From a virus, in the IMG/VR virus record IMGVR_UViG_3300017589_000061, positions 73,367-137,366 of that record: a stretch of DNA of 64,000 nt, one strand, 5' to 3'. A program made the position numbers and the translations under genes. Every line of letters starts with the position of its first letter. Positions within the stretch are counted from its first letter, which is position 1. Below are positions 1 through 51,949 of the stretch, piece by piece. A model generated the notes under the pieces. The model ran no database searches. It had not been told where the DNA came from and saw nothing but the letters and a program-made list of their open reading frames with translations.

Positions 1-784
1 ACGCAGATAAGTTGGATTTTATGGATGATGATTGTGATATACAAGGCTTTCCAATTGAAGATGAAGGAGAGAAAATGAATAGTACAGAAAAAGCAAATTT
101 ATATAATGAAACTTTAAAAAAGATAGAGGATTTGTTAATAGAAACAGATTCTAAATTAGGTGATATGCAATCGTTAGAAATATTATCTTCTATAGTTAGA
201 GATTATGATTTAATAACAGCAAGTAATTTAATTAAAATGAATTGTGATCCATACCTTACTAAATCAATATTAGAGGATAGAATGTATGGCGAAGGAAATG
301 AAGAAGCAGGATTCATATCATTAACATCTTTACTTGAATCAGTTGAAGAAATAATAAATTGTGATGATAGTGATATGGGTGAAGTTAAATTTCAATATCT
401 TGTCCGACCTGAAACATCAGAAGAAGCAGAAGAAAATGAGCATGATGAATCTGATGCTACATGGTATATAAAAGATGAAAATATTGATATTGAAAAGTTA
501 AATATTCAATTTGAATTTGAATAAAATTAGGAATTTATAAGGAGAGATAAAATGAAAGAAGTTAAATTATATGTTGAAGATAATGGTTATAGAGATTACG
601 AAGATACGGATACATTACTAGACCAATTAAAAAAGGAATATGATAAACCAAGACCTGTAGTTTTACAATTATATGATAATGAGGGACAAATAATTATTGG
701 TAGATGCACTTGTGTAATTGGAACATTAAAAAATGGTTCTTTTCTTTTAACTGGCAATATTGATGATATTCTCTGTGAAAAGTA

Positions 785-828
785 ATAAAACTAGGGTTTT
801 ATGAGAATTATAACGTTGAAATTTCAAC
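785..828. repeat. Composite site: A + 12 bp + B
   Basis: ATAAAA-CTAGGG-TTTTAT (785-802); GTTGAAATTTCAAC (815-828). Confidence 0.9.
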
Positions 829-1596
829 GATTTAAGGAGAGTGAAAATGGATATATTAGAAAGTAAAGACGTAATTACAAAAAAAGAACATAATTGTTTT
901 GGTTGTGGGAGAAAATTCCCAAAAGGATCAAAGTTAAATTTCACAAAATCAGTCGATGGTGGAGAATTTGCAAGTGCTTATTGGTGTAAAACTTGTCAAG
1001 AATATTGGGAAAAAAATATGTCATATGACGATGAAATAGGCTATGGGGAATTAAAATCAGAAGATTTTAGAGTATGGGAAATAATCAGAAAGGAAGTTGA
1101 AGTAAATGAATAAATTCGAACACTTCACAGATGATGAATTATACATATTGAAACGTCAAGCAATAGAATCATCTTGGGAAATTTGTGGATGTGGAGCATA
1201 TAACGAATTTGAAGTTAGATTACATGAAAAGTTAATGAATGAAATTGCAGATGAAGTTAAAACGAGAGGGTGTTAGAATGTTAAAAGTAAAAGATTCAGT
1301 AGGTGGAATTTACAAGAGAACTAAAGATGGGAAAGAAGAATGGTATCTACTTGAAGATACAATTAACAAAATTGTTGAAAATGGGAAAGGTAGAAAATAT
1401 TATACAAAGTCAAAATTTGTTCCTTTAGACGCAGATGATATTGACGATAATACAGAAATTTTGGAAAATGCCAAAGGATATATTATTACAAGAGAAGTAT
1501 TCGGGTTGAATGATATTACTCGACCTAAAGCGGAAAATTGGGTTGAATGGGCGAATGAAAATATGGATAAAGCAGTAAGTGTTTTTGAATAGGGTG

Positions 1597-1640
1597 ATAA
1601 ATTCGTTGTTTTATTAGAAGCATGATGTTGAAATTACAAC
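1597..1640. repeat. Composite site: A + 12 bp + B
   Basis: ATAAAT-TCGTTG-TTTTAT; GTTGAAATTACAAC (1627-1640). Confidence 0.85.
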
Positions 1641-2721
1641 GTTTATGGGAGGTGAAAAAATGAAAAATAAAGATAATACAATATATAAAGTATACATAAT
1701 TGAAAACGTCACAATTTTAATTTTAGCAGGGTTTTTATGTTATATATTCAAGAGCTTATGGGGATTGTTACCCTTAGTATGTTTAAATACAGGTGTTAAA
1801 ACAAGAAGTAATGATGATGAAGAATAGAAGAAGTAATTTAAACGAAACAAGGCTAAATTTAAAAATGACCGCATTTGATTTAAAAATATGAATAATAAAA
1901 GGGGAGTAAAATGGATAACCAATTTACAAATAGTATAACAAAAAAATTAATAGAAATACACAAAGAAGAGCAGAGGGATTTTCTTACTGGCGAAAAAGAT
2001 TTATTAGTTCCAAAAAATGAATTTATAGATAAGATAATGAAATATGAAAATGGAGAAAGTTATCTTGAAGTAATTTCTATGGAAAATTCTATTTTTGAAA
2101 GACAAGGGTTGGTTCATGGTTTTTCAGATGAAAATTGGGATACATATTTTAAAATACCTAATTGGGATAATTTTATGAGTGGAGTATATGCATTTTATAT
2201 AGCTTGTTATGCTGATGAAGATGAAGAAGAATAAATTAAAATAAAAGGTGTGTTTTAATATAAAAGGAGATTAAATTATGTTGACAGTTAGGGAAGCATC
2301 AATTATATCAGCATATACAGGGGTTTTAATTGGCGAATTTAGTGACATGTGTAAATATATCGAAGAGAAGTTAGATAGACCAGTTTTTACTCATGAATTA
2401 GGAAATAGTGACGTGTGGGAAGAATTAAAAGCAGTTTGTAAGGAAGATTTTATAAATATTCCAATAGAAAAATAGATAAATTAAAAGGGGTGTAAAAATG
2501 CTTTTAGATAAAGAAGATAGATTTTTATTAGTTGATGAAGATGGTAATGTAGTTATTGTAACAGAAATAGAAACGAATCATTTATTGACAATGAATTCAT
2601 CTATGCCAGTAAGAGGTAAATTAATAAGATTAGATTATGAAGATTTAAATGTTGATAGTATTGAAGATGTAGAAGTACAATTAAGTTTTTATATAGAAAA
2701 TATTGAAAATATTACAAAAAG

Positions 2722-2775
2722 ATAAAAGAACTCTTTTATTACTTATAGTGAAGATTTAGATATTGAAATTTCAAT
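2722..2775. repeat. Composite site: A + 22 bp + B
   Basis: ATAAAA-GAACTC-TTTTAT; ATTGAAATTTCAAT (2762-2775). Confidence 0.85.
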
Positions 2776-3576
2776 AAAAAAGGAGAATTAAATGATAATA
2801 GAAAATGCTTTAATAATGAATATTATGAAAACTGAAAATGGGCTAGATATAACAAAAGAAATGGTTGAAAATTCCTTAGAGAGTTTTATAAATGCTCCGA
2901 TAGTTTATAATGAAATGGGTACGTTTAAAGACTATAAGGATGAGTCATTTAAAGATTATTTTAAAAAGAATATAGTTATTGGTATGGTATTAAAAAATGT
3001 AAATATTGCAAATGATGAAGTTAGAGCTAATATTTTAATATATGACGGATGTATAAATCTTTGGGCAGATAAATATGATAATTGGTGCATTAAATTAGCT
3101 GAAGATAAGAAAAGTTTTACCGTTGATTCAATAGAAGTATTTTAAATAGAAAGTATATTTTATGGGAGACAAAAATATGGATATGTATACTAAATGTAAT
3201 AATTGTAAAAAAGAATTAAATATTGAAGATGCAAAAAAGCAAATTGTAAATAATGGGATTTGGATGAATGAAAAGATAATTTGTAAAGATTGTTATGAAA
3301 AAGAAATAAAAAAGTTAATACAACAGTTATGTAAAACCTATAATTTAAAATATGAAAACTGTTTTACTGAAATAAAAAATAATCATTTGCTGATAAAAAC
3401 AGAATTAGGTGAAATTAACAAAGAATATTACGGTACAGATACTTATTATTTTGTAATAGACACTTATAATAATATTAGATGGATACAAAAAGATGATATA
3501 GAATTTAATTTACATAATGAAAATAATAATGCTATTGAAAGAATGATTGAATTAATAAAATTTATGTGTGATAAAT

Positions 3577-3630
3577 ATTGAAATTTCAACGTTTAAAATT
3601 GTAAAGATTATGATAAAATGAGATTTTTAT
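3577..3630. repeat. Composite site: B + 22 bp + A (reversed order)
   Basis: ATTGAAATTTCAAC (3577-3590); ATAAAA-TGAGAT-TTTTAT (3613-3630). Confidence 0.85.
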
Positions 3631-3827
3631 CGGGAGGGCGAAAATCATGAGTGATACTCATCTTAATGGTAAATATATTAAAAGTATTGATAGAATTGAT
3701 GACAAAACAATTCACATCAATCTAAAAAATGGAAAAATTGTAGTGATAAGAGCTACAATGTGTGATTATGATGATTGTGAATTGATTATTAGAAGATAAA
3801 ATTCAGACTTTATCAGGAGGTTAAAAA

Positions 3828-4142
3828 GTGAATGCAAATGTAAATGACATTGAAACAGCAATAAGCGAAGTAAAATATCATATGAATGGAAAGTCAGAAA
3901 TTAGTCCAAAATCTTATAAAATTATTATTGAAGCTTTAGGGATACAAGTACCTGAACACCCAAGATATAATCATAGTTATGAATATGCTGACATAGATGG
4001 GAATAGGGGTATTTGGGTGGATTTTATACATTGTCCTAATTGCGGGTATGATTTATGTGATGAAGAAGAACCTGAACGTTGTCCAGAATGCGAGCAATTA
4101 TTGGACTGGGGACTTCCTGAAGAAGATTACTGGGAGTATTAA
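3828..4142 (+). CDS. Zn-ribbon phage protein
   Basis: CPNC...CPEC.QLLDW; paralogous C-terminus in 4539-4880. Confidence 0.6.
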   Translation: MNANVNDIETAISEVKYHMNGKSEISPKSYKIIIEALGIQVPEHPRYNHSYEYADIDGNRGIWVDFIHCPNCGYDLCDEEEPERCPECEQLLDWGLPEEDYWEY

Positions 4143-4538
4143 GAGGTGGAATATGGAATTAAATAAACATGGTGTAAATGCTTGCATAAAAGCACACTTA
4201 TTGCCAGATACAGAAATGAGAAAAATAGGATTTACAGATTACAGAGAAGGGTATTGGTATTTTTGCAGAGATTTAGGGTATGAGATATCTTTTAATGTTA
4301 CTATAAACAAGAATGACGTTGAAGATTTATGCATTGATGTTTTGGATGAAGATTTTGGTCAGCCATATGATTATCAAAAATATTTAAAAAACATTCCAGA
4401 AAATGAATTTGTGCTTAAAATAAAAGATAAAGTTGAACATTGGATGGAATATTTACAGACAAATGGTGTGTTGAGTGGACACATTAAAGGCGAGTATATT
4501 TAAGATAGAATCAAAAATTTATAAGGAGGTAGAAATAA

Positions 4539-4880
4539 ATGGAAATTAAACAATTAATAAATTATTGCGATATGCAAATAAAGCGTTATGAGGACAATAT
4601 TGAAACACTAAGATTATCGGCTAATCCTACATATGATTGGAATAAACATAATATATTTATAGATAAAATACAAAAATACAAAGATTTAAAACAAATTTGT
4701 AAAAAACAAATACCTCAAAACCCAATTACATTAAAGTATCAACCACTTATAGATTATGGTTGGGAACATAGTTGTCCAACGTGTAATTGTGCAGCAGGCA
4801 TTAATAGTCATGGATATGATTTTACGCAAGAAGATAACTATTGTCCTAATTGTGGTCAAAAATTAGATTGGGGAAGATAA
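4539..4880 (+). CDS. Zn-ribbon phage protein
   Basis: KQIP...CPTC...YCPNCGQKLDW. Confidence 0.6.
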   Translation: MEIKQLINYCDMQIKRYEDNIETLRLSANPTYDWNKHNIFIDKIQKYKDLKQICKKQIPQNPITLKYQPLIDYGWEHSCPTCNCAAGINSHGYDFTQEDNYCPNCGQKLDWGR

Positions 4881-5144
4881 TTAAAATCGAAGTTTTAATA
4901 GGAGGGAATATGAAAGAATTATTTATGCAAATTGAAATTTATGAAGCTAAATTAAATAGAACAACTTGTTTTGATAACATTGTAAATATGAAGGTTTTAA
5001 ATAACAATTTAATTATAAAAGATGAAAATGGCTGGTCAACAAATATTGAAATTAATGAAGGTATCGAAGTTAAAGTTAATTTTTATAATTTAGATGATGA
5101 TGAATTTGAAATTTAATTAATAGTAGAATTATATTAAAAAAGAA

Positions 5145-5173
5145 TTGACAATTCACAAAACAAAGAATATAAT
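5145..5173 (+). promoter_or_regulatory. SigA-type promoter
   Basis: TTGACA-17-TATAAT (perfect consensus). Confidence 0.85.
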
Positions 5174-5906
5174 ATTACAAAAGGGGTGAAGTAATGGAAA
5201 TAAAATTAAATGATGTTTATAAATTTAGGTATCACGAAGAAGTACGGAATAAAAAAGCGTTTGATTCTTATTGGTGTTTTGATGGTAAATTAATTGTAAA
5301 AGAAAATAAAGACGGTTTATATTTACAAGATACGTACTTGAATAGTGGTGATGATAGACGCTTTACATTAAATGAAGCTCTAAAGCAAGGAATACTCACT
5401 TTTATATGTAATTTAGATGATGTTGAAGAAATAGGGGAATATAATATTCAATATTACAATGATGAAGATGTATTTGATTTATCAACTCAAAAAGGGTGTC
5501 GTAAAAAATATTGTATTAAAAAGGGAACAAAACGTTCAGCAGAAAAAATGAAGAGTGTGTTGAATGAGAAAATTGAAGATTCGGAACGTAAAATAGAATA
5601 GTTAACTTCTGATATAAAAAGATATAAAGAAAAGTTACAAGAAGTAGAAAACGGGAATTTAGATATTTATATTTAAGGTTATATTTATAAAAGGAGTGAA
5701 AAGTGAAATAATGACTAGACATAAGTATATGAAGGTAATAAAACATATTAAAAGATTATTTTGTTATCACAAATGGGATATAGTAGGAAATCCTTATTTG
5801 TGGGATTATGGTAAAACTAAAAGAGCAAGTGTCAGATGTATAAAGTGCAATAAATTATCAGATATTGACATCTTTGATACGCCTAAAAGAAGATTATATT
5901 AAAAAG

Positions 5907-5960
5907 ATAAAATAACGGTTTTATCCGAATTATAGGTCGAAAAAACGTTGAAATTTCAAT
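5907..5960. repeat. Composite site: A + 22 bp + B
   Basis: GATAAAA-TAACGG-TTTTATC; GTTGAAATTTCAAT (5947-5960). Confidence 0.9.
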
Positions 5961-5997
5961 GGTTATGGAATGTATAAAATTTAAAAAGGAGTAATAA

Positions 5998-6690
5998 ATG
6001 TTAGGATTAAATAAATTATATCAAGGTGACACATTAAAACTAATAAAACAAATTGACAGTGAAAGTATTGACTTAATAGTAACTGATCCACCATATCCAA
6101 CAACCAAAAGAGGTATAAGTAAGAATACAACAACTGGGGGAATGATGGTAAGCGAATTAGGTAAGCAAGGGAAAATGTTTGAACATAATAATATAAGTCC
6201 CAAAGAATACATACCAGAGTTTTACAGAGTTTTAAAAGAAAATTCACATTTTTATATTATGACAAATCATGTAAATTTACAAGAGATGTTGAATGTTTGT
6301 ACTGAAAATGGATTTCACTTTATTAAGTCTTTAATTTGGAAAAAAGATAATAAAATTATGGGGCAGTGGTATATGTCACAATTTGAATATATATTATTTT
6401 TTAGAAAAGGAAAAGCAAAAAGAATTAATAAATGTGGAACTTCAGATGTACTAGAAGTTGCTAATAAGAAAACTAAAAGTGAGGATGGTAAAAATCTGCA
6501 CGATACAGAAAAACCTATTGAGTTAATGCAAATATTAATAGAAAATTCGAGTCAAGAAAATGACATACTTTTAGAGCCGTTTGCTGGAATTGGTGCAACG
6601 TTAATCGCATGCAAAAATTGCAATAGGCAATACATAGGTTTTGAAATTGATGAAAGTTATTATAATATAGCGTTTCAAAGATTAAATTAA
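5998..6690 (+). CDS. DNA N6-adenine/N4-cytosine methyltransferase (beta class)
   Basis: DLIVTDPPY precedes HDTEKP and EPFAGIG (SAM-binding motif). Confidence 0.9.
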   Translation: MLGLNKLYQGDTLKLIKQIDSESIDLIVTDPPYPTTKRGISKNTTTGGMMVSELGKQGKMFEHNNISPKEYIPEFYRVLKENSHFYIMTNHVNLQEMLNVCTENGFHFIKSLIWKKDNKIMGQWYMSQFEYILFFRKGKAKRINKCGTSDVLEVANKKTKSEDGKNLHDTEKPIELMQILIENSSQENDILLEPFAGIGATLIACKNCNRQYIGFEIDESYYNIAFQRLN

Positions 6691-8784
6691 AAATATAAAT
6701 AAAAGGATAAAATATGGCAAAATTAAAAAATGATTGGAGCAACGCATTTAGAGGTAGTTTTGAAACCGAAGAAGATGTGATTGAATTTATTTTTAAAAAT
6801 TTAGATACAAAAAATTGGGAAGATAGTTATATAGATATGGGTGGATATGGCGAACCTAACGAATGTTTCAAACAAACAGTTGGAGATAAGAAGAATTTAT
6901 TGTATGAGTTTATAATGAGTTTAATAAAACCATAAAAGGAATCTTTTAAGAGGTGAATAATATGAGTATAGGATTTAACTGGTTTAAAAGTTATAGAATT
7001 GATGAAATAGATTACGGTGAATATGTAGGTATTGAGTACAATTTGGAATATCTTGATGGATATTCAACTTCTCATAGTGCTGGGAATATTATAAAATTAC
7101 AAAATATTTTTCAAAAATATTTTAATATAGAAATTCCTACCATTGACACATATTGTATATATAGTAAAGAACAAGATTTAAAACTAATAGAACCTAAATG
7201 CATGTTTAAAATGTGTGATGAATTATTGAATAGTGGTAATGATTTACAGGGCATGGAAGATAGAATCGCATGGATTAAAGAATTATCAGCAGAGGGGTAT
7301 TATGTTAGCTATGATAACACATAGATACTATAAAAAATCATTTATTGGGAGGTAAAAATGAATAAGATGATAATAAACCCGTCAATAAATTTAAACGAAT
7401 TATGTTCTTGGTGGGACGACAATGGGAAAGAATTTAAAATAATAGATTCTTTTGGAGAAGAGTTTGTGACTATAAACAAAGAAACAAGAGAGGTTTATAA
7501 TTATGGTTATAATGGAATGTTATCTGAATGGTATAATGCAAGAATATTAATCGAAGATAATAATTTAGACACTACATTATGTTTTCCACATACTATAGGA
7601 AGAATTACATTTTATACGAGACAAGAATTAGAGAGTTGGGTATTAAGTAAACAAATGTAATTATATTAAAAAGGAGATATAAAATGGATAAACAATTTCA
7701 AGTTGATAGAGAAATATTAATGTACGCAATGAGATACGCATTAGGCAGAATGACATTTGCACCAATGACAGTAGTTGAAAATATTAAGCACAATATTGAT
7801 TTATTTTCAGAAGGCGATTTGGAAATATTTATTAGAGATATTGAAGAACAAGAAAGCTATGGTAGGCAAGCGTTAGGAATGAATTGTGATGTAGAAACAT
7901 GGTTAAGTTTTAAACAATATTTAAAAGATAGAATACAAAAGGAGTTGTAAACATGGAAAATTTAAGTATAAAAGAAGTAGCAGAATATGTTATTAAGAAT
8001 CATCCAGAGTCTTGTATAGCATACAATGTAAAAGATTATACAAATGAATACGAAGGAATATTAATAGATGAATTAGATAGTTTTTTTACATATGACATAA
8101 TAGGGATATGTGGCTGTGGCGACCCTGATTTATGCAAAAAAGATATAAGAGATATTTTAAATATTATTTATGAATATGATAATTCAGAAGATGATTTTAG
8201 CAAAAAATATGAAGTAAAGCAAAATAGGTTATTAGATAGATTTGGATGTATGAGTGTTTATGATAATTCTTTGTTATTGTTTATGGTTTACATATTAGAC
8301 AATGTGGGATTACTAGAACATGGAAGTGGTATTGGTGGTGCTTGGATAACAAATTTAGGCAATATGTGTAGAGTAGTATATAATAATTTAAAGCTTGATG
8401 AAGAAGATTAAAACATTGCTTTTATTAGGTTGATAATAATTCAAAAATACTTTATAATATTTTAAAGGATGTGATAAATTTGAATAAAAGTCATTTTGGT
8501 GAATGGAATAGACCTTTAAAATATAAAAGAATGGTCGAACGTGTAATAGCAGTACAATTATTTGATGTATGGAACACCCCACCAACAAAAGCATATGTTC
8601 ATTATTATGATGCTGATAATGGTTTTGATATGAGTAATCCAATAAAAATATATCAAAGAAAAAATGGAACGTATTATGTACAATTTGAAGGGTATAGATT
8701 CGATATTGATGTTTTATTAGGAAATAAAGAACAATTCATATAATAATATTAACTTAATAAATAAATTAAAAAGGAAGTGGTGTA

Positions 8785-9258
8785 TTGTTAAACGATTCAT
8801 TGTTTAGTAGTAAAGATCAAGCGTGGGAAACTCCACAAGATTTATTTGATAAATTAAATTCAGTTTTTAATTTTAAAATAGATGTTTGTGCAGTTCCAGA
8901 AACAGCAAAATGTAATACATATTTTACACCAGAAATAGATGGGTTAAAACAAGAATGGAAAGGTAATTGTTGGATGAATCCACCATATGGTAGAGAACAA
9001 ATTAAATGGATTGAGAAAGCAAGTAATGAAAATGCAACAACAGTTTGTTTAATTCCTGCAAGACCTGATACAAAAGTATGGCATGAAACAATATTTAAAA
9101 AAGCCAAAGCTGTTTGTTTTATAAAAGGAAGATTAAAATTTGGTGGCAGTAAAGATTCAGCACCATTTCCAAGTGCCTTAATAGTATTCGGAAATGAATT
9201 GACAGATGATCAGAGAAAAGTATTAAATGAGTTGGGTAAATTATACATAGAAAATTAA
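8785..9258 (+). CDS. Phage N6-adenine DNA methyltransferase (phage Dam-like family)
   Basis: WETPQDLF, DGLKQEW, WMNPPY, GRLKFG, APFPS motifs. Confidence 0.88.
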   Translation: MLNDSLFSSKDQAWETPQDLFDKLNSVFNFKIDVCAVPETAKCNTYFTPEIDGLKQEWKGNCWMNPPYGREQIKWIEKASNENATTVCLIPARPDTKVWHETIFKKAKAVCFIKGRLKFGGSKDSAPFPSALIVFGNELTDDQRKVLNELGKLYIEN

Positions 9259-9267
9259 ATTAAAATG

Positions 9268-9321
9268 ATAAAACCAAGATTTTATTATACAAAATCAAAA
9301 ATTGAGCGTTGAAATTGCAAC
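9268..9321. repeat. Composite site: A + 22 bp + B
   Basis: ATAAAA-CCAAGA-TTTTAT; GTTGAAATTGCAAC (9308-9321). Confidence 0.9.
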
Positions 9322-9339
9322 GAATTTAGGAGGTAAGAA

Positions 9340-9678
9340 ATGAATAAAATTGAAAATGCAATTATGAATTTAAAATCACTAGACAATCAAGCAGATTTAT
9401 ATGGTTTTCAAATAGATACTATAAATTTAGCAATAGAAGCACTTGAAAGGCAATTAAATAATGGTTGGATTCCTACAAAACAAAGATTACCAAATATGAA
9501 AGAATGTCAAAAGAATGATTGTAGATTTATTGTTACAGACGGAAATAGAGTTTATGGAGATAGTTTTGATTATCTTGCTGATGGATACATAGAACCAAAA
9601 TGGGTTTATTCGTCAATGTGTGAACCGATAGCATGGCAAGAGTTACCTGAAAGATATAAGGAGGTAAAAAATGAATAA
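9340..9678 (+). CDS. DUF551-like phage protein
   Basis: AIEALERQL..GWIP...LP...IAWQELPE. Confidence 0.65.
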   Translation: MNKIENAIMNLKSLDNQADLYGFQIDTINLAIEALERQLNNGWIPTKQRLPNMKECQKNDCRFIVTDGNRVYGDSFDYLADGYIEPKWVYSSMCEPIAWQELPERYKEVKNE

Positions 9679-10021
9679 TGTTGAGATTAAAAAAGCAATA
9701 TATACAATAGAACATTTTCAAGAACTTATTGGCGATTATGAAACCAGAGAACATATAGAGGATTTAATAGATTCAATAGATTTAGCAATTGAAGCACTTG
9801 AAAAACAATTAAATGGTGGTTGGATATTATGCAATGAAAAATTACCAGATGATATACCACCAGATAATAATTTTGGTGTTGATTATTGGATTACATATTT
9901 AGATGAATATAATAATCCTGCGGTTGGAGTGTATGAGTGGTTGTGGAATAGAAAATGGAATATAATACATAAAGTTATAGCTTGGCAACCATTACCAAAA
10001 GAATACAAAGAATTAAGTTAA
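9671..10021 (+). CDS. DUF551-like phage protein (tandem paralogue)
   Basis: AIEALEKQL..GWI...LP...IAWQPLP. Confidence 0.65.
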   Translation: MNNVEIKKAIYTIEHFQELIGDYETREHIEDLIDSIDLAIEALEKQLNGGWILCNEKLPDDIPPDNNFGVDYWITYLDEYNNPAVGVYEWLWNRKWNIIHKVIAWQPLPKEYKELS

Positions 10022-10301
10022 AATATAAAACGAGGCTTTATTGGGAGGTTAATAATATGTCAAAAGAAACAGCTATAAATGTTATTAAAGCATTTTTAAA
10101 TGGTGGCATAAAGGCAGATGATAACGCATTTAAAGTAGCTTGTAAAATTGCAATAGAAGTAATGGAAGAAAGTCCCAAACAATCTATATTCTCAGATGAC
10201 CTTATAAATCATCTGATAGATAAACATATTGCTGAAATTGTAAGTAATAATTAATAATAGAATCTATAATTTAATGATATTTAAAAAAGGGAGAAAATAA
10301 A

Positions 10302-11492
10302 ATGAATTATGAATTTGAAAAGAAAAAATTAAAAGCATACTTAGGAAGTAACATATATAATTCCTTAAAAGCAAGACAATGTATTATAGCTGGTGGTATG
10401 ATAACAAGTTTATTTTGTAACAGAGAAATAAATGATGTAGATGTTTATTTTAGGGATAATGATTCTTTAGAATGTTTTCTTAATGAAAATATAAGAAATA
10501 ATACGTGGATATTAAGTAAAACAGATAAAGCTTTATTAATTAATTGGAATAAATTAAAAATTCAGCTTATATATTTTGATACTTTTGACAACGTACAAGA
10601 TTTATTTGAAACATTTGATTTTACTGCTTGCATGGGAGCTTATGATTTTAAGATTGAAGAGTTCGTATTGCATGAAGATTTTATAAAACATAATGCTCAA
10701 AGAATATTAAAATTTAATGCTAAAACAGCATATCCATTGGTTTCAGCTTTTAGACTTGATAAATATAAGTTAAAAGGTTATACAATAAGCAAAGACGAAT
10801 TTATGAGGATCATGCTAACTTGCTCATTATTAAATATTGATACATACGAACAATTCAAAGAACAAATAGGTGGAATGTACGGAATAAATTATGATAAATT
10901 TTTAAAGCCAAAAGAAGGCGAGAAATTCGATTTATTAGATACCATAGAAAAAATGTCAACGCTGTGTTTGAATGATGAATATTTTAATGGAATAAATACT
11001 GATTTTGTAATTGATGATTTTAATATTCTAATAGCTGAAATTACAAAAAATAAGATAAAATATTTTGAATTCAAAGATAATTATTATATACATACATTTG
11101 ACGGGATTTCACATATATCAATTTCAGAAATAGAGAAAAATGTAAATCTTTATGAAAAAGTAGATTTATTCGATAGCATAATAAAAGACGGTAAACTTTA
11201 TAAATATGTTATGAAGAAAAATAATAAATATTATAGCTTTTATGATACAGGTTTTGAATACAAAATAAGCAAAGATATTATTGCTCAAGAAACAAATAGT
11301 TTTAGTAATGCAGGAATTTATTGTGGTATGTATGATGACAGATTAAGTTTTTCCTATTCATGTTATGATGATTCTGTATTGATAGAAATAGAAGTTAAAA
11401 GTGAAGATTTGATAGGAATTGATTATAATGGAATGTTTAAATTTAAAAAGGCTAAATTTATCAGAAAAATGGAAAAGGATTCTATAAATTAA
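10302..11492 (+). CDS. Pol-beta superfamily nucleotidyltransferase (CCA/poly(A) polymerase-like head)
   Basis: IAGG...NDVDVYF and FDFT motifs in the N-terminal half. Confidence 0.65.
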   Translation: MNYEFEKKKLKAYLGSNIYNSLKARQCIIAGGMITSLFCNREINDVDVYFRDNDSLECFLNENIRNNTWILSKTDKALLINWNKLKIQLIYFDTFDNVQDLFETFDFTACMGAYDFKIEEFVLHEDFIKHNAQRILKFNAKTAYPLVSAFRLDKYKLKGYTISKDEFMRIMLTCSLLNIDTYEQFKEQIGGMYGINYDKFLKPKEGEKFDLLDTIEKMSTLCLNDEYFNGINTDFVIDDFNILIAEITKNKIKYFEFKDNYYIHTFDGISHISISEIEKNVNLYEKVDLFDSIIKDGKLYKYVMKKNNKYYSFYDTGFEYKISKDIIAQETNSFSNAGIYCGMYDDRLSFSYSCYDDSVLIEIEVKSEDLIGIDYNGMFKFKKAKFIRKMEKDSIN

Positions 11493-11510
11493 GTTAAAAA
11501 TGTAAAGTAC

Positions 11511-11564
11511 ATAAAATTTACATTTTATCGTACAAAACAAGAAAATAAGTGTTGAAATTTCAAC
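11511..11564. repeat. Composite site: A + 22 bp + B
   Basis: ATAAAA-TTTACA-TTTTAT; GTTGAAATTTCAAC (11551-11564). Confidence 0.9.
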
Positions 11565-11581
11565 AAAAAAGGAGTAGTAAT

Positions 11582-12376
11582 TTGGCAAAGATAGAAAATG
11601 ATAAATATTATACATCAAAAGAATTAGCTAAATACTGTATAGATAAAACATATAAAATTATTGGTTATGACAATATTTCAGAGGTGATTGAACCATCGGC
11701 AGGAAGTGGAAATTTTAGTTTACAGATATCTACTATTTGTTGGGCGTATGATATTGAACCTGAACACGAAACTATTATAAAAGCTGATTTTCTTGAAAAA
11801 GAATTTAATTATTTAGATGGTAGGTTGATAATAGGTAATCCCCCATATGGTAGATGTTTAAATTTAGCACAGAAATTTTTTAAAAAATCAACTAAATTAG
11901 GTGATTATATAGCTTTTATATTACCGATAAGTCAACTCAATAATACACAAAGTTTTTATGAGTTTGATTTAATACATAGTGAAGATTTAGGTAAACAAAC
12001 TTATACTGATAGAGAATTACATTGTTGCTTTAATATTTATCAAAGACCTGAAAGTGGAGAATTGAATAAAAGACCAATAAATAAATTAAAAGACATTTCA
12101 ATCATAAGACAAGATAGTAAAGGTTATAAAGAAAAAGATTTTGACATTAGAATGTGTTATTGGGGTGATGGTACAGCAGGAAAAATACTCAACAATGACG
12201 AAAATTATTCTGCCGAATATAAGATACAAATACATAATGAGCAGTTAAAAGATAGGATAATTGAAGTCTTAACTAATTTTAATTGGAAAGAATACTTGAA
12301 TTGTATAGCAATGAGAAAAATTCAACAATTTCATATTATTGATGTATTAAAGAAACAAATATCAGAAATAAATTAA
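11582..12376 (+). CDS. DNA adenine methyltransferase (gamma class)
   Basis: DKYYT, IEPSAGSG, IGNPPY; start placed at TTG 11582 after GGAG. Confidence 0.8.
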   Translation: MAKIENDKYYTSKELAKYCIDKTYKIIGYDNISEVIEPSAGSGNFSLQISTICWAYDIEPEHETIIKADFLEKEFNYLDGRLIIGNPPYGRCLNLAQKFFKKSTKLGDYIAFILPISQLNNTQSFYEFDLIHSEDLGKQTYTDRELHCCFNIYQRPESGELNKRPINKLKDISIIRQDSKGYKEKDFDIRMCYWGDGTAGKILNNDENYSAEYKIQIHNEQLKDRIIEVLTNFNWKEYLNCIAMRKIQQFHIIDVLKKQISEIN

Positions 12377-18062: not shown

Positions 18063-18091
18063 GGGTTTCCTTCACAACGGGAGGTGATTAA

Positions 18092-38609: not shown

Positions 38610-38657
38610 ATTGAAATTTCAACGTTAAAAATTAGTATAATAAAAGAATAGTTTTAA
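38610..38657. repeat. Composite site: B + 16 bp + A (off-phase copy)
   Basis: ATTGAAATTTCAAC; ATAAAA-GAATAG-TTTTAA. Confidence 0.75.
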
Positions 38658-39830
38658 CTGCCGAAAGGAGAATGAAATGATTATTAAAAAAGGAAACGAA
38701 TTACCAGATAACCCAATGGGATCATTAACTTTAGAACCTAATTATATTGGAACACATGAAAATGGATGGACTATAACAGGTAAAATTAAAGAAGATTATT
38801 ATGAATGGGTAAATGAGTTTCATGCCATCAAAAATGGGAAAATTGTATTTGGAGATTTTGAAAGTCAAGTATATGCAAGTGATGAAGAAACATATCAAGA
38901 ATTTATTAAAGAATTCCCCCCGCATGCATGGGATTATGGTGATATATAAAGCAATGGTTTTATTAAAAAGGAGATGTTTAATGTGTGTTTATTTGAAATA
39001 TCAATGTAGGAATGGGAAGAAAAGGGGGATGTAGAAGGTCAAAAGAAATTAATGAATTTATTAAATGATTTAGATGGTATGATTAAGGATTGTTTAAAAT
39101 AGAATAATGCAATGTTTTTATTAGAAAAGTAGGGTAAATAATATGAAAATAATAATGATAATTTTTAGTGCTACTGTTGCAATTTTTTATGGAATATTAG
39201 CGTATATAGGTTTTATAAATAATTATAAGTTTGTGTATTCTAATATAATGGTTGCAATTACTTGGGGTGTTTTTTCTATATTATGGTTACGATTGTATTT
39301 AAACGATAAATAGATTAAATTAAAAGTGGGGGTACAAATTCCATCAGTATAATCAGAGTTATCTATACATAATTAAAACAATACAATTATAAACATGGTT
39401 TTAATCCCCACATAAAATTAAAAAGGAGAAAATAGAATGTATGTTAAAACTTATTTTGAAGCTAAAAGAGAAATGACGAATTATTGCGACAAAGGAACGT
39501 GCAATATGAATAATCCAAATTGCCCATTCAGTATTTTAAATAATGGAATGTATGTGAATTGTGTAAAATTAGAACAAGATTATCCTGAATCGGCACAAAT
39601 AATAATGAAACAATATTTAGATAAAAAGTTTCCTGAAGGTTATAGAATATGTATAAGAACGCACAAAGCTGAAAGTGTTTATAAATGCAATAAATATGAT
39701 TCTTGTATGGAATGTCAAAAGGTGGATAAAGAATTAGAGATGGTTGTAGATTTAATGGATCAAGCAATAACATTAAAAGAAATGCATGAAAGAATTTAAT
39801 GATAATTAAATTAAAAAATGAGAATAGGAT

Positions 39831-41801: not shown

Positions 41802-42863
41802 GCATAACAAAAATGGATACTTCACACAAGAAGAATTGTTGGAATTTAAACATATGACCGATGAAGAATTTGAAGAAAAAATATTAAGACATTTTAATAC
41901 AAAAGATTTTAAATGCCCACCAGAAAAATATGAAACTGTACCATGTTTTTATTGTCAAACTTGCATGAGGAACACACGAATGTTAGTAAAGGAGAAAAAG
42001 TAATGAGTGGATACTTAAAAAAATACATTTCGAAATATAGAGTGAAGGCTGATTATGATTTAAGAACAAATGATTTTGTCCGCGATGAAGAAGGGAATTT
42101 AGATAAAAGTTTTGATGATTATTACATCCCATGTGCAAGTAAAGCAAAAATACGACATTACCAACAAAATATATTATTCTATTATTGTCCTTCGGTTGGT
42201 AGATTTAGAAATATATTAAAAAAGATATACGAAGATAAAATCGGCAGTTTAGAAAAATTTCAAACTGTATCAGTTTCCAAAAAAGGGGAACAACGAATTT
42301 CATTTGATGTCGAATCTATGTACAAAGAATTAGTAGCAGAAAAGGTAGTAGAATATATAGACGAAATGGAGGAAGAAGGAGAGTTTAGATTTAAAACAGA
42401 TTTGATGGAATACATAGCAAATATTGTTGGAGCAAAAACTTCTGGATCATCAATCAGTCCATTCTCTCCTAAAAATTTACCTAATAAAAAGATTGATATA
42501 CCCCTAGAAAATTTGACCAAATACAAAGAAATTATCAAAGATTTAGAAAAGAGTGAATTATTAGTGATTAATAGAATACAAAATCAATTTGATAAGGTTA
42601 TTCAAACTAAAAAAGGTAAGCTATATGACATAAACAAGGAAAGAAAATTATCATGTTTGTCAGGGAAGGAGTTTATCTATTCTATCGGATTGTTTGATGA
42701 TTATTTGAAATTTTTAAAAGATAAGGTATCGAAGTATCAAAAGGATAAAAACGTGCGTTAAAACGTAAATAAAAGACTTGTTTTATAATTTTGATATTCG
42801 AAAAATATTTAAATTTATTAGGGTGGCTGATTTAAAAATAAATTAAAAATACATTGTTATTAA

Positions 42864-43996: not shown

Positions 43997-44611
43997 TTGA
44001 GAGGACAGAATATGAAAACAAAAATTAATAAGATGGAAAATGATTGGATTAACATAAAAAACAAATGTAGGAATACTGTCAATAAAGAATATACAGACAA
44101 CGAACCTAAATCATTATTTAAAACAAAATTACTAATATCAGAACATTCTCCAATAAGATTATTAAAAGTAGATTGGAGTTGGAAAAATATATTTTCATGG
44201 ATTGCCACTCAATTTTCCAGATCAAAATGGGAGTGCTTTATATCAACTCGTAGAAGTGATAGAACTGGTATAGATAGAGGGGTGTTGTCTCAAAATGAAT
44301 TAGTTAATTTTGATGGAGAAGCTAATGCTCAAAATTTAATTGATACTGCGAGAAAAAGACTATGTTTTCAAGCAAGCAAAGAAACTAGAGAATTAATGGA
44401 AGATTTGAAAATAACACTAAGGGAAACTGAGCCAGAATTAGCTGATGTACTAGTTCCAAATTGTATATATCGTTGCTCCTGTCCCGAATTTGAAGAATGT
44501 GGATATTTTAAACATATAAAAGAATTATTGACAAAAGACGAATTAATTGATATTAAATTGAGATATCATTTATATAATGTATATTTTTATGAAAATAATA
44601 AATTAAGTTAA
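43997..44611 (+). CDS. thyX: ThyX-like flavin-dependent thymidylate synthase
   Basis: SEHSPIR, RSDR, RKRLC..AS.ETR, C-terminal CIYR..CPE. Confidence 0.65.
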   Translation: MRGQNMKTKINKMENDWINIKNKCRNTVNKEYTDNEPKSLFKTKLLISEHSPIRLLKVDWSWKNIFSWIATQFSRSKWECFISTRRSDRTGIDRGVLSQNELVNFDGEANAQNLIDTARKRLCFQASKETRELMEDLKITLRETEPELADVLVPNCIYRCSCPEFEECGYFKHIKELLTKDELIDIKLRYHLYNVYFYENNKLS

Positions 44612-45580
44612 AAATTATCTTTTATCGGGAGGATTAAAATGAGTAGTTGGAATGGAAAAATAATATGTACGCAAAGTTTTTATGGTAATGTTTTTAATGA
44701 ACAAGAAATTTATAATATTAAAAATGGTTGTTTCCAAAAGGGGATATTTGATAAAGAATTTGAGAATATAGATGAAATAAATAGTTACTTTTCGGCTAAA
44801 TTTGAAGAAATTACAGAAAATAATTATGTTAACCTAAATAAACGTTGCAATTACAACGTTTCTAAAAGTGATTTACCTAATAAAATCCCTGTTTTATGTG
44901 AAATTTTAAATGTTGAACCACTGAAAAAATTTGGCATTCAATTATCCAAAGAGAAATATTATATTGATACATACGGACACTTATTGACTGAATGTGGAAC
45001 AAGTAAAGATGAATATGTTCCATATCTAATTTCAGGCGAATATAAAATAGTAAAATTGCCATTTTATTCGTTTGCTGAAGATGAAAGGATTATTATGAAA
45101 GGTTTATTATTGAATGATTATAATTACATAGCAAGAGATGAAGATAATGATTTATGGGCTTATCAACTTAAACCTTTGGAAGATGAATCAGGCGAATATG
45201 ATGCTGATGATGGAGATTTTTCAAAACTAAACAATGGATTCTTTAAACAAGTCCAATGGGGAAATGTACTTGACATTAAAGCTGAAATTGATAGATTAAA
45301 TTAAAAGGAGAGTATTATGATAAGTTTATACATATATAGCATTTTAATTACAATGGTAGCTTTTATTCTTATATGGATTCTTTACCAATCAAATGAAGAA
45401 ATTAAAAATTTAAAAAAAACAAGTGAATGGACAATTAATTATATAAGAAAATTTTATGAAGGAAACATTGAGTATTATGACGAAAAAATTAAACAGTGTG
45501 AAAATCAAATTTGTGAAGATACTGATTTAATTAATAAATTAAGAAAAGAATATCAGAGGTTAAAAGATAGCAAATGGTAG

Positions 45581-48313: not shown

Positions 48314-49342
48314 TTATAAATTTTTTATATCTTTCTTTTCAATTTCTTTAATTCCATTTTCATCAAAATATTCACCTAAAATATCATCAACCTGATTGTC
48401 ATCGTAAATGTCGATCATCGAAGTGCTATCCCATGACGAAATATCTTTTATAATATTTGCTGGGACGTTTGCACTGACAAGACCAGTAGTAAAATTATGT
48501 CTTAACGAATGCCAATAAAAATCAACATTTAAATACTTACCAAATGATTCAGCATAATAATTTAAACTTGCTTCAGTCATACATTGCCATTTATCATCTT
48601 TTTTAATAACAAGTAAATCGTCAATACTTACTCCCAATTTTTCTCTTTCAATCATCCATAAATCAAAGTAGGGTTTAAATTTATTCTTTAATGTGTACTT
48701 AAAAATTTGCTTCCCAGCCTTACTTCGCCCTTTTGATTTTATCTTTTCTGGTGTTTTGTAAAGCGAACCATATAAAATATTTTCTTCATCGAAAAATGAA
48801 GTTTTAAATCTTAACAATTCTGATTTTCTACTACCCGAACCCCAAGCAAGAGCTAATGCACAAGCTTGTTGATATTCTTTATTCTCAACTAAATAATCAA
48901 GTAATTTTTGAACATCTTCATCTTGTAATATTGTTTTTTCTCTAACTGGATTTTTAGCTGGAGCAGGAATTTTATTAATTATATTTCTAAAATTCGGGTA
49001 TAAATCGTCCATTATTGCTTCGATATAGTTACTCATACTGCTTAATGAAGCTCTTAATCTTCTTATCCTATTAGATGATAAATGCATAATATTTAACATA
49101 TAATTTTGAAATTTTATTAAATCACGTTTTGTAAAATCAACAAAATATTTGTTATTATTATTTTCTAAATTCCAAATATAAAATATTTTTATATCTGAAG
49201 TATAATTTTTAACAGTCAAATCACTTCTGTCTATTGAATTAAGATAATCACAAAATTCCTCAAGCAACTGCTTATTTTCTTCTAATACTAAATCATAATT
49301 ACCTTCGCTTACTACATTATTATATACCGTACCTCTAGCCAA
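48314..49342 (-). CDS. Tyrosine recombinase
   Basis: SAM-like N-domain, GSRKSEL (Arg), HSLRH, SW...DIY (Tyr). Confidence 0.88.
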   Translation of the reverse strand: MARGTVYNNVVSEGNYDLVLEENKQLLEEFCDYLNSIDRSDLTVKNYTSDIKIFYIWNLENNNNKYFVDFTKRDLIKFQNYMLNIMHLSSNRIRRLRASLSSMSNYIEAIMDDLYPNFRNIINKIPAPAKNPVREKTILQDEDVQKLLDYLVENKEYQQACALALAWGSGSRKSELLRFKTSFFDEENILYGSLYKTPEKIKSKGRSKAGKQIFKYTLKNKFKPYFDLWMIEREKLGVSIDDLLVIKKDDKWQCMTEASLNYYAESFGKYLNVDFYWHSLRHNFTTGLVSANVPANIIKDISSWDSTSMIDIYDDNQVDDILGEYFDENGIKEIEKKDIKNL

Positions 49343-49690: not shown

Positions 49691-49840
49691 TTTTACACCT
49701 CATAAAAGTTGAATTTTATCTGTTATTATCTTTTTTTTAACTTGATTTTTTCAAACTTTATGATATAATTAATAAAACTCATCAGAGTTTTTGGGAGCAG
49801 GATGTCTTGATAGGTAAACTGCTCCTTTTTTAATATCATT

Positions 49841-50207: not shown

Positions 50208-51575
50208 TTAATTTAAATTAAATCTTATTATATTATGTATTCGTCTTGAATTTTCACCTTCAAATACATATTCACCATTGGCATCCATAAAAGTTGATCC
50301 ACCCGAATCTAATGATATAGCAAAATTATATGCCTCACCTGTACTATTATCTGAAATTATTTTTAACAATTCACCATGAGAAACATTCTTAACAGTTAAT
50401 AAATATACTTTATTTAGTCTTTTATTGTATCCTAATACAGTTTTATTTGTTTTTCTTAATACATCCGAATAATCAACCCATTTATTATCTTGTTTTCTAT
50501 ATCCACCTTTAAAACCTTCGGTTACGGGACTATACTTAAAATTATTATCTTGTGTATTTTTAAGACCAAGTCCTCCAATTACCAAACTAATTTTATTTAA
50601 ATCTAATTCATTTAAAAAGTTAATTCTCTTTAAATCAACTGTATTATCCTTATAAATTATAAAAACTGATTGTGGTGTTCCAAAATCATAATAATGATTG
50701 GCTACATCTTGATATGTTTTACCATCTACATATAAAATACTTGTTGCATAAGTAGTACCATCTGGATTTCGCCAATAATATGTTCCGTTGGTGCAGTTTG
50801 TAAATTCAGTAATATCCCATATTTTTTTATCTACAATAGCAACATCTAATAACTCTGGATTTCCTTTTAATTCAGTCATATTGCTATATTTTTTAAAATC
50901 AACTTTTGGTTTTTCGGCTATTGGTGCTACTATTACATCTTCAATAACTTCACCATTTATAGCTTTTGCCAAACTAATAATCATTGATTCTGCATATTGA
51001 TAATCAGTCAAATATTTCATACTAATATCTTCTAATTTTGCTTTTTCTCTTATTATTTGCTTTGCTTTATCAAATTCCATTTTTTTCATCTCCTTTTTTA
51101 TATTATCAATGAATACATCCCAATGTGGCAATATCAATCTAGGACAAATTTTACCACTCCAATGTTTATGTGGTACAACTTTATCAATAGTAATTCCAGT
51201 AGCCTTTAATAATTCGGCTACAAATTTAATTGCTAATTCTTCAGCACCGTCTACTTCAGCAATTTCTATAGCTATTGATTTTCTATTACCATCACCATTT
51301 AACCCATCGCCAGAATTCCAACTAGCTTCAATAATAGGTATTTCTTGATAAACTTCATTTGCCCCAACTGTAAAATGCCAAGAAACATATCCTGTAGCAG
51401 TATCTACATATTCACTATTTGCCTTAGCACTTGTATTTGTGTTGCCAGTGTTATGTATTGTAATATACTCAGGATTCATTTTATATTGTGATCTGCTGGT
51501 AGCATTGCTTATTGGAATTAAATCTTGAATTATGTTAATTGTATCAGAACTTACAATTCCATTTTTAATTAACAT
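50208..51575 (-). CDS. Endolysin: Amidase_2 domain plus C-terminal NAGPA-like domain
   Basis: ITIHNT, SWHFTV, SIAIEI, HKHWSGKICP; C-terminal KTVLGY...SLDSGGST. Confidence 0.85.
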   Translation of the reverse strand: MLIKNGIVSSDTINIIQDLIPISNATSRSQYKMNPEYITIHNTGNTNTSAKANSEYVDTATGYVSWHFTVGANEVYQEIPIIEASWNSGDGLNGDGNRKSIAIEIAEVDGAEELAIKFVAELLKATGITIDKVVPHKHWSGKICPRLILPHWDVFIDNIKKEMKKMEFDKAKQIIREKAKLEDISMKYLTDYQYAESMIISLAKAINGEVIEDVIVAPIAEKPKVDFKKYSNMTELKGNPELLDVAIVDKKIWDITEFTNCTNGTYYWRNPDGTTYATSILYVDGKTYQDVANHYYDFGTPQSVFIIYKDNTVDLKRINFLNELDLNKISLVIGGLGLKNTQDNNFKYSPVTEGFKGGYRKQDNKWVDYSDVLRKTNKTVLGYNKRLNKVYLLTVKNVSHGELLKIISDNSTGEAYNFAISLDSGGSTFMDANGEYVFEGENSRRIHNIIRFNLN

Positions 51576-51596
51576 CTTTTACACATCCTTTATATT

Positions 51597-51623
51597 AAAA
51601 AGAGTGTCAAGTTTATGACACTC
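51597..51623 (-). terminator. Intrinsic terminator after the integrase/76-aa unit
   Basis: GAGTGTCA/TGACACTC stem followed by a T-run on the - strand. Confidence 0.7.
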
Positions 51624-51636
51624 ACAAAATTAAATT

Positions 51637-51867
51637 TTATTTTTCAGGAACTTTTAACATTTCTTCAATTTCTACGTCCATTGTTTCGTAGTCTAAATTT
51701 TCACAACCAGTAAAATTGTATTTGTAAATTGTTTCAGTATTTCTATTTCTTACATGAGCTACTAATATATCAGTAGCAACTCCCATATCAACTTCTTTTT
51801 CTCTTGATATAGTTTTTCTTTCTTCTAAATATTTTTGTTCAAATTTTTCTCTTAATTCAATTATCAT
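51637..51867 (-). CDS. Hypothetical protein downstream of the Xer-like integrase
   Basis: 76-aa ORF with AGGAG RBS. Confidence 0.6.
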   Translation of the reverse strand: MIIELREKFEQKYLEERKTISREKEVDMGVATDILVAHVRNRNTETIYKYNFTGCENLDYETMDVEIEEMLKVPEK

Positions 51868-51905
51868 TTTTATCTCCTAATTTTTGATTTTTATATTAAA
51901 AAAGT

Positions 51906-51949
51906 GTTGAAATTCCAACACTATAATTCGGATAAAATGTGACTTTTAT
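51906..51949. repeat. Composite site (A + 12 bp + B on the - strand) containing the integrase stop codon
   Basis: GTTGAAATTCCAAC (51906-51919); GATAAAA-TGTGAC-TTTTAT (A = 51932-51949); stop codon 51946-51948. Confidence 0.9.

Follow-up and report, generated by a model that had tools for sequence, protein, structure and literature searches.

Background

Phage genomes are mosaics whose pieces meet at gene boundaries. The origin of these joints has been debated for a long time, and they are usually put down either to random illegitimate joining followed by selection or to relaxed homologous recombination. Here we analyze a 64,000-nt stretch of DNA (the window), which forms the last 64 kb (positions 73,367 to 137,366) of a 137,366-bp phage record, IMGVR_UViG_3300017589_000061, in the IMG/VR database. 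An 18-bp palindrome, ATAAAA-N6-TTTTAT (the A site), with the core TAAAA-N6-TTTTA, is repeated at gene ends throughout much of this DNA. By its gene content the phage is SPbeta-like, and its A sites probably mark crossover joints that are read by a phage protein.

Several described systems combine short inverted arms with a central spacer. In the Xer/dif layout, 11-bp arms stand around a 6-bp centre. The arms and centres of pdif sites, which form modules in Acinetobacter plasmids, resemble those of the chromosomal dif site, and pdif is read by the host Xer proteins. The attC sites of integrons are long imperfect palindromes, which are recombined by IntI as folded single strands. In engineering practice, heterospecific lox and FRT sites are given identical arms and different spacers, and only sites with like spacers recombine.

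Repeated intergenic elements are also present in phages. In T4-type phages, the promoter-early stem-loop (PeSL) cassettes contain a sigma-70 promoter and a working terminator hairpin, and homologous recombination is described as taking place between whole PeSLs (Arbiol et al. 2010, PMC2839356). In SPbeta, a phage of Bacillus subtilis, the master repressor MrpR (YopR) is reported to have a tyrosine-recombinase fold with recombinase function lost, and to bind a repeated 15-bp element, SPBRE, at ten intergenic promoter regions; all ten peaks obtained by ChAP-seq contain SPBRE (Kohm et al. 2023, PMC10516654). The SPbeta literature describes yopP, yopQ and mrpR as core genes of SPbeta-like phages, and the report on YonO states that this RNA polymerase transcribes the late genes of SPbeta from one start site upstream of yonK (PMC5467207).

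An 18-bp palindrome at gene ends

The window contains 18 perfect A sites, compared with a mean of 0.39 and a maximum of 2 in dinucleotide shuffles, and 16 of these lie inside positions 521-51949. If one mismatch is allowed (near-perfect sites), the window total is 39 (18 perfect and 21 near-perfect). An initial annotation, made from the letters alone, had counted 15 perfect and about 23 near-perfect copies and had estimated that fewer than one perfect copy would occur by chance; the estimate holds and so does the substance of the count, with the exact figures replaced by those above. The whole genome carries 27 perfect A sites and 76 at up to one mismatch, 61 of which overlap a called gene by 6 nt or less. 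The spacing between the arms is fixed. When TAAAA-Nk-TTTTA is scanned genome-wide, k = 6 yields 60 matches and each other k from 0 to 20 yields 2 to 12 (at k = 5 there are 2 matches here and 1 in SPbeta); the reversed pattern, used as a control, gives 0.

On the coding strand, A sites follow a stop codon and precede the next ribosome-binding site. Most are -4 to 14 nt from that stop codon, and the following start codon lies between 13 and over 400 nt away. The TAA in the left arm serves as the upstream stop codon at 521, 2722, 3796, 6932, 8408, 13910, 16356, 26563, 28336, 38946, 44608 and 51932. The initial annotation had named all of these except 13910, together with a site at 12686 that falls outside the set with at most one mismatch. 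It had also seen only degenerate copies in the core replisome and the tail operon. The tail operon in fact holds two perfect copies (54110 and 60392), both inside open reading frames, and the replisome region has three near-perfect copies (17381, which is intergenic, and two intragenic ones).

The anatomy of the element was derived from 50 intergenic core sites of the genome, oriented by gene direction. Sequence information is limited to the arms and the single base that adjoins them at either end; the core is preceded by A at 39 of the 50 sites and followed by T (28) or A (20). The N6 centre is near-uniform in base composition, with a G+C content of 0.37 compared with 0.26 for non-coding DNA. 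Its innermost pair is depleted for pairing (8 observed, 13.5 expected), and a test for stem extension or covariation finds no complementarity beyond the arms. All 76 centres in the genome are distinct in either orientation (0 identical pairs, with 2.4 expected), and none of the 76 is self-complementary.

Neither a promoter nor a terminator accounts for the A site. Around the 50 oriented sites there is no -35 or -10 information, and sigma-70-like matches are not enriched (127 versus 128 in shuffles). A ribosome-binding site falls within N6 at two A sites of the genome outside the window. A sites are not promoters for YonO, because that polymerase transcribes the late genes from a single start. 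On these grounds a promoter is ruled out. A terminator scan finds 6 terminators in 17 kb with no A site among them; the arms amount to six A-T pairs with no G+C stem, and, with no covariation outside the arms, a terminator or extended hairpin is ruled out as well.

The A site across the SPbeta-like lineage

The assignment of the phage to the SPbeta-like group is based on a YonO-type RNA polymerase, a DnaE-type polymerase accompanied by RecJ, primase and helicase in the SPbeta order, and a yopP-yopQ-mrpR block. Local tblastn finds homologues of the SPbeta YonO RNA polymerase, terminase, tape measure, YonV, YopQ, primase, RecJ, polymerase and dUTPase, and PHROGs identify the replication genes as those for a DnaB-like helicase, a primase, a RecJ-like nuclease and a DnaE-type polymerase. 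The lysogeny block of SPbeta, with its order kept, lies at genome positions 68345-71774, 1.6 kb upstream of the window. It encodes a YopP-like integrase (Pfam Phage_integrase, 9e-32), a YopQ-like protein and a 325-residue MrpR-like protein. The last of these scores 24 bits against Pfam MrpR_N_CB, below the 27-bit cut-off, and has no match among PDB sequences, from which it is too diverged; the MrpR-like assignment is thus based on gene order and the sub-threshold Pfam score. The genome has a G+C content of 27% and is about 21% (20.7%) non-coding by crude gene calls. Judged by the polymerase, the closest named relatives are the Clostridioides phages LIBA6276 and LIBA2945 (64% identity), and relatives within IMG/VR have 38-68% protein identity. 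A 396-residue accessory protein, used as a query for close relatives, returned zero matches, and a metagenome scan for relatives returned a single 5.9-kb replisome contig, which contains no A site.

SPbeta itself (NC_001884) has 34 core sites at k = 6, compared with 0-4 at other spacings, and they are placed in the same way with respect to stop codons and ribosome-binding sites; A sites also precede terminators there and occur in divergent gaps. The half-site in SPbeta is 11 bp, TTTTA-T-Y-Y-A-R-A, with A at position 9 in 67%, A or G at position 10 in 90% and A at position 11 in 83%. The palindrome extends symmetrically, which gives an 11-6-11 element of 28 bp. The geometry of a tyrosine-recombinase core site, which the initial annotation had recognized in its arm-6 bp-arm pattern, is present in full in SPbeta, and with arms conserved over only about 7 bp in the window phage. 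In SPbeta, a further stop codon in a different frame can often be read in the outer left arm, immediately ahead of the inner-arm TAA; consequently, the A site would stop upstream open reading frames in two of the three frames.

Four further IMG/VR phages (G001-G004) were found with a composite of the A site, a gap and a second palindrome, the B box (see below). They have 37, 39, 28 and 13 sites at k = 6, respectively, as well as B boxes, and they share almost no nucleotide similarity with the window phage or, mostly, with each other. The outer arm bases of G001 differ from those of SPbeta and read T-G-R-T; such lineage-specific outer arms would fit a phage protein that co-evolves with its sites. 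LIBA6276 has a weaker signal (19 versus 6) and no B box. A sites number zero in SPO1 and SPP1, which are phages of Bacillus, and in phiC2, an AT-rich phage of Clostridioides, and therefore the reader is probably encoded by the phage rather than by the host. The known repressor of SPbeta is not that reader, because its 10 ChAP-seq peaks, all with SPBRE, compare with 34 A sites. The element extracted from the regions upstream of the ten MrpR targets differs in sequence from the A site, and A sites adjoin SPBRE at aimR, yorE and yosX. A description of the A motif was not found in the literature searched, which included term look-ups in PMC10516654, PMC8270828, 10.1101/2021.11.22.469490 and 10.1101/2020.05.06.055103.

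A sites at the edges of exchanged blocks

Junctions between genes were compared in two SPbeta regions (109.3-134.4 kb and 72.9-98.3 kb) and 12 loci of the phages phi3T, Goe11, Goe13, Goe14, SPR, SPbetaL1, L3, L4 and L8. Homology-block boundaries are present at 26 of 29 junctions with an A site and at 26 of 70 without one (p = 1.5e-6). When only gaps of at least 25 nt are considered, the figures are 25 of 28 and 20 of 36, respectively (p = 0.005). Block starts cluster from -10 to +3 relative to the start of the core (24 of 40, mode -1) and block ends from +13 to +24 (16 of 27, mode +16). These clusters are the outer edges of the 18-mer, and they are seen in gaps of 98-586 nt as well. Indeed, in the alignments the sequence is unrelated up to the first base of the A site and identical from there on, centre included.

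The centre is also maintained. At 15 A sites that lie inside homology blocks, variation affects 2 of the 90 N6 columns and 2 of the 150 arm columns, compared with 62 of the 750 flanking columns. The corresponding P values, 0.018 for the centre and 0.00025 for the arms, are optimistic because the rows share ancestry. Intragenic sites account for two of the 15, and for one of the two changes in a centre.

Similar joints occur in the AT-rich clade whose members bear B boxes. Between G002 and G004, 4 of 25 alignment starts lie 1-8 nt before an A site, and about 0.3 would be expected as estimated from site density. Contigs from sludge and wastewater, which were compared with window positions 1-20000, lend weak support. 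An A site with a different centre links 5913 to 11523 and 5912 to 9289 in these contigs, and a 99%-identical contig, in which 5959 is joined to 7336, diverges at the end of a B box. Only these three joints were retained; many others with sides of 20-25 nt may be repeat matches.

The initial annotation had taken the sites for recombination points of accessory cassettes, arranged as an integron-like array, and had asked whether breakpoints fall in the N6 centres. Sites and exchanged-block edges do coincide to the base pair, in the SPbeta genus and between G002 and G004. The edges map to the outer ends of the 18-mer, and N6 is shared across the joints, so that breakpoints are placed to the 18-mer as a whole. 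Two-site cassettes are not the rule: among 71 replaced or indel segments in the SPbeta comparisons, an A-site edge is present at both ends of 3, at one end of 28 and at neither end of 40. Thus, A sites are frequent and precise joints, though not the only ones, and not cassette delimiters of the integron kind. A two-site cassette pattern is ruled out as the dominant one, and the initial reading as a whole is supported in part.

Tyrosine recombinases of the phage

The phage encodes three apparently intact tyrosine recombinases, as judged from catalytic residues aligned to solved Xer proteins: a YomM orthologue, the YopP-like integrase and an extra Xer-like protein. All three keep the catalytic arginines, the histidines (or tryptophan) and the tyrosine. 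Two of the genes lie in the window, both on the minus strand. The Xer-like gene (51946-52944, 332 residues), whose stop codon lies in an A site, has R, K, HxxR, H and Y aligned to XerA; judged by these residues, the linked recombinase noted in the initial annotation appears intact. The YomM orthologue (48314-49342, 342 residues), with R, HxxR, W and Y aligned to an XerC-like chain, is 30% identical to SPbeta yomM and has orthologues in G001 and G004. Pfam assigns only generic Phage_integrase domains, and IntI4 is a weak PDB match that ranks below Xer proteins. No statement on the function of YopP or YomM was found in the SPbeta literature consulted.

The B box

A second palindrome, GTTGAAATTTCAAC (the B box), occurs 17 times in the window at up to two mismatches, compared with 1.15 expected. 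Sixteen of the 24 B boxes in the genome adjoin an A site, and in 14 of these 16 composites the gap between the two elements is 12 or 22 bp, in either order. Since the two gaps differ by one helical turn and the order is indifferent, both elements are probably DNA that is bound by proteins on one face. A -10-like hexamer follows TTGAAA by 17 bp in only 3 of the 24, which rules out the B box as a general -35 element. By analogy with SPbeta, the B box is most likely the operator of this phage's MrpR-like repressor, and it is likelier than the A site to be the counterpart of SPBRE.

The spacers between A site and B box (12-22 nt) share a short conserved stretch, which is present at 5924-5935 (site 5907) and, 46 kb away, at 51920-51931 (site 51932, minus strand), and partly at 803-814 (site 785). 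The 22-nt gaps often contain phased A-tracts.

Proposed mechanism and alternatives

We put a probability of roughly 0.45 on the following reading of the sequences: A sites would be junction elements recognized by a protein and preferred joints for the exchange of gene blocks, each of them a core-type site for one orphan tyrosine recombinase of the phage. The candidate reader is the YomM-like, the YopP-like or the extra Xer-like enzyme; we infer both the identity of the binding protein and its cutting at A sites. Two recombinase monomers would bind the inverted A/T arms, and the six-base centre would be the region of strand exchange. Strand exchange depends on identical centres, and recombination would therefore be confined to sites with the same centre in two phage genomes residing in one cell. 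Every junction would thereby carry an address of its own, exchange would be kept in register, and the 76 sites would leave the genome unscrambled. Overall, the sequences are best explained by a junction element that a protein binds and at which modules are exchanged; with a recombinase as that protein, the fixed spacing, the unique and conserved centres, the 18-mer shared at joints, the gene-end position and the surplus of recombinase genes would be explained together. The fuller proposal, a natural system of addressed site-specific exchange, in which dif-like sites with shared arms and unique crossover centres are read by a YomM/YopP-family protein and let co-resident relatives swap accessory genes in register, seems to us doubtful.

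Several observations weigh against a recombinase. Large junctions without an A site are also boundaries in 20 of 36 cases, and after the gap-size filter region 1 alone gives p = 0.11. The whole 18-mer, N6 included, is common across each joint, so that joints are placed to the 18-mer and no finer; the shared ancestry that makes the conservation values optimistic has been noted above, as has the scarcity of replaced segments with sites at both ends. In the window phage, conservation of the arm extends over only about 7 bp, and megablast against phage genomes finds no close relatives of this phage. In the laboratory hybrid Hyb2phi3Ts-SPbeta, crossovers map to identical stretches of 1.4 and 4.9 kb, which is uninformative as to site (the stretches happen to be bounded by A sites), and in their preprint the authors of the phi3Ts-SPbeta hybrids place 15 of 16 recombination sites in homologous regions. 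Finally, MrpR is a precedent, in the same lineage, for a recombinase-fold protein that acts as a pure repressor.

This precedent leads to the strongest alternative, in which A sites are operators or insulators; the initial annotation had likewise named a multi-site operator network as its main alternative. A dimeric protein encoded by the phage, possibly an idle recombinase fold like MrpR, would bind them, for example as roadblocks in the lysogen. As conserved islands between unrelated genes, the sites would then allow general or annealing recombination to make the block edges with no site-specific enzyme, by passive short-homology recombination of the PeSL type. This alternative is to be taken seriously, and is only somewhat less probable than the recombinase. 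MrpR does act at ten intergenic SPBRE places in SPbeta (PMC10516654), PeSLs are described as regulatory repeats able to drive shuffling (PMC2839356), and the laboratory hybrids are reported to form by homologous recombination. The adjoining of A site and SPBRE at aimR, yorE and yosX, the 12/22-bp phasing with the B box and the placement at gene ends, before a ribosome-binding site, all suit a regulator, and the boundaries at 20 of 36 large junctions without a site, like the 40 of 71 segments with no site at either end, also favour this alternative. However, binding through the arms alone predicts a centre that drifts, whereas N6 is as conserved as the arms. An operator would also have to be reconciled with the lack of promoter or terminator signal at A sites (no -35, 127 versus 128 sigma-70-like matches, a stem that is not extended) and with ChAP-seq of MrpR, whose 10 peaks are all SPBRE, versus 34 A sites in SPbeta.

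The remaining alternatives are less probable. An RNA element, in which a hairpin of six A-U pairs with a six-base loop between cistrons gives a processing, stability or translational signal for a phage protein, is improbable. It would explain why the sites lie after a stop codon and before a ribosome-binding site on the coding strand, and also the asymmetry of the last base by gene direction (T 28 and A 20 of 50, where symmetry predicts about 78% T). But a stem of six A-U pairs would have very little stability, covariation does not lengthen it (pairing at the innermost N6 position is seen 8 times, versus 13.5 expected), and Rfam matches are limited to an intron. The helical phasing between A site and B box, whichever comes first, suits DNA and not RNA, and in SPbeta the A sites occur before terminators and in divergent gaps and form a palindrome that is symmetric to 28 bp. 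Very improbable is a reader from the host, that is, a conserved Firmicute protein such as the host Xer pair, a nucleoid protein or a ComK-like A/T-box binder. ComK reads A/T-tract palindromes (AAAA-N5-TTTT), and the 11-6-11 site of SPbeta is dif-like; yet the N5 spacing is not enriched (2 in the window phage genome, 1 in SPbeta), SPO1, SPP1 and phiC2, from the same host genera, have no sites, the outer arm bases vary between phage lineages, and the hosts of phages with the motif include both Bacillus and AT-rich, anaerobe-like bacteria. A compositional accident of AT-rich intergenic DNA, for which a genome of 27% G+C and arms of only A and T might speak, has next to no chance: it is refuted by the shuffles (18 versus 0.39), the peak at k = 6, the reversed pattern (0) and the AT-rich phiC2 (0).

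Positions of A sites and B boxes in the window

In a first group of composites the B box lies downstream of the A site. A gap of 12 bp separates the perfect A site at 785-802 from the B box at 815-828, a match to the motif, and the A site at 1597-1614 from the B box at 1627-1640 (one mismatch each). With a gap of 22 bp, perfect A sites at 2722-2739 (stop codon in the left arm), 5907-5924, 9268-9285, 11511-11528 and 31307-31324 are followed by B boxes at 2762-2775 (two mismatches), 5947-5960 and 9308-9321 (one mismatch each), and 11551-11564 and 31347-31360 (both perfect). Metagenome contigs join other modules at the A site at 5907, and the 99%-identical relative contig diverges at the end (5959) of its B box. 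The same gap separates the A site at 13910-13927 (one mismatch, stop codon in the left arm) from the B box at 13950-13963 (one mismatch); TATAAA stands 17 bp after the TTGGAA of this B box.

The order is mirrored at 3577-3590, a B box with one mismatch 22 bp before the perfect A site at 3613-3630; at 32028-32041, a perfect B box 12 bp before the perfect A site at 32054-32071; and at 38610-38623, a B box with one mismatch and an A site (38640-38657, one mismatch) 16 bp downstream, which is off-phase. The B box at 44844-44857 (two mismatches) has a perfect A site 22 bp downstream (44880-44897), which lies inside a called open reading frame (44639-45304) that may be a wrong call. At the Xer-like gene, a B box with one mismatch (51906-51919) is 12 bp from the perfect A site (51932-51949) that overlaps the stop codon, and TATAAA again stands 17 bp after the TTGGAA of the B box, on the minus strand.

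Other perfect A sites are found at 12389-12406, 15019-15036, 15960-15977, 34724-34741 (in a long gap), 42769-42786 (7 nt after the upstream stop codon and 131 nt before the next start) and 49702-49719 (between minus-strand genes). Sites with one mismatch and the stop codon in the left arm are at 521-538, 3796-3813, 6932-6949, 8408-8425 (followed by a sigma-70-like promoter match at 8430-8458), 16356-16373, 26563-26580 (upstream of a gene for TnpB), 28336-28353, 38946-38963 and 44608-44625. Further sites with one mismatch are at 2241-2258, 3146-3163, 15438-15455, 17381-17398 (with a ribosome-binding site in the centre) and 31651-31668.

Other features of the genome

The TnpB gene (26595-27815, plus strand; OrfB_IS605 and a Cas12f1-like TNB domain) lies directly after the polymerase block, and G001 has a 56%-identical copy. 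The TnpB gene is preceded by an A-like site, in which a small hairpin is formed by the centre and flank. A metagenome contig whose helicase is 96% identical carries 757 nt of other sequence in place of the RecJ-like gene (window 21034-22737, plus strand); the breaks coincide with the start and the end of the gene, and no A site is present there. Outside the window, the homologue of the SPbeta terminase gene yonF matches two separate open reading frames, at genome positions 21814-22524 and 23418-23924 (region 21814-24486, minus strand), and the yonF-like gene may be split by an insert.

A group II intron lies in the window region 62031-64000 (minus strand), with Rfam matches at 62068-62144, 63603-63688 and 63740-63911. 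It is the only window match to the ribozyme families of Rfam, and none was found elsewhere in the genome, at the gathering threshold or, outside the window, at E up to 1. A B box with one mismatch (62031-62044) lies 22 nt after the TTTTAT of a canonical terminator that the intron interrupts. Insertion into an A site was considered and is ruled out: the 5' exon is a G+C-rich hairpin followed by TTTTA, that is, the terminator. With the intron removed in silico, the TTTTAT of the terminator is followed by 22 nt and then by the B box, and the terminator takes the place that an A site usually has relative to a B box. What the record gives as a "direct terminal repeat" is an exact overlap of 99 bp between its two ends (window 63902-64000 and the first 99 bases of the genome). 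It sits inside the intron and therefore probably arose when a circular or permuted genome was assembled, rather than being a true terminal repeat.

Comparison with known systems

A defined element of 18-28 bp is thus present at joints throughout a phage lineage that includes a tractable model, SPbeta in Bacillus subtilis. The question of how mosaics are cut is directly testable here because the lineage holds both SPbeta and conserved recombinase genes. If A sites form an operator network, they would reveal a second genome-wide regulator of SPbeta-like phages beside MrpR. If the centre is an address, they would provide a ready-made toolkit of orthogonal recombination sites.

The A site resembles the PeSL, as described for T4-type phages, in being a short conserved motif that recurs between the non-essential genes of plastic regions, where it marks the limits of differences between close relatives. 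Unlike the PeSL, it shows neither a promoter nor a terminator signal; it is a palindrome of 18 bp (28 bp in SPbeta), and its unique centre is conserved at orthologous places. With SPBRE and MrpR it shares the lineage and the form of a repeated, palindromic, intergenic element; the reader of SPBRE has the tyrosine-recombinase fold, and the window phage keeps the order yopP-yopQ-mrpR. However, SPBRE is a different 15-bp sequence found in sigma-A promoters at about ten places, and A sites are 3-7 times more numerous. The ComK box, AAAA-N5-TTTT, has a spacing of five bases rather than six.

Inverted arms around a six-base centre, 11-bp arms (in SPbeta), flanked accessory genes and nearby Xer-like genes are features that the A site has in common with dif and pdif and their readers, XerC and XerD. 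In contrast to pdif, the A-site arms are A/T-only and lineage-specific (conserved over about 7 bp in the window phage), every centre differs, and the candidate enzymes are encoded by the phage. As in attC arrays of integrons, A sites follow each of many small promoter-less open reading frames in one orientation, often overlapping the stop codon. Unlike attC, the A site is only 18 bp long and its complementarity ends at the arms. The joints are in-register replacements instead of insertions at one end, most replaced segments do not have sites at both ends, and no attI/Pc platform was seen, though no search aimed at attI was made. The logic proposed for the N6 centres is that of heterospecific lox and FRT sites, an arrangement that is artificial; no natural phage system of this kind was found in the literature searched. 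If addressed exchange does take place at A sites, the system would be the phage counterpart both of integrons and of engineered heterospecific lox sites.

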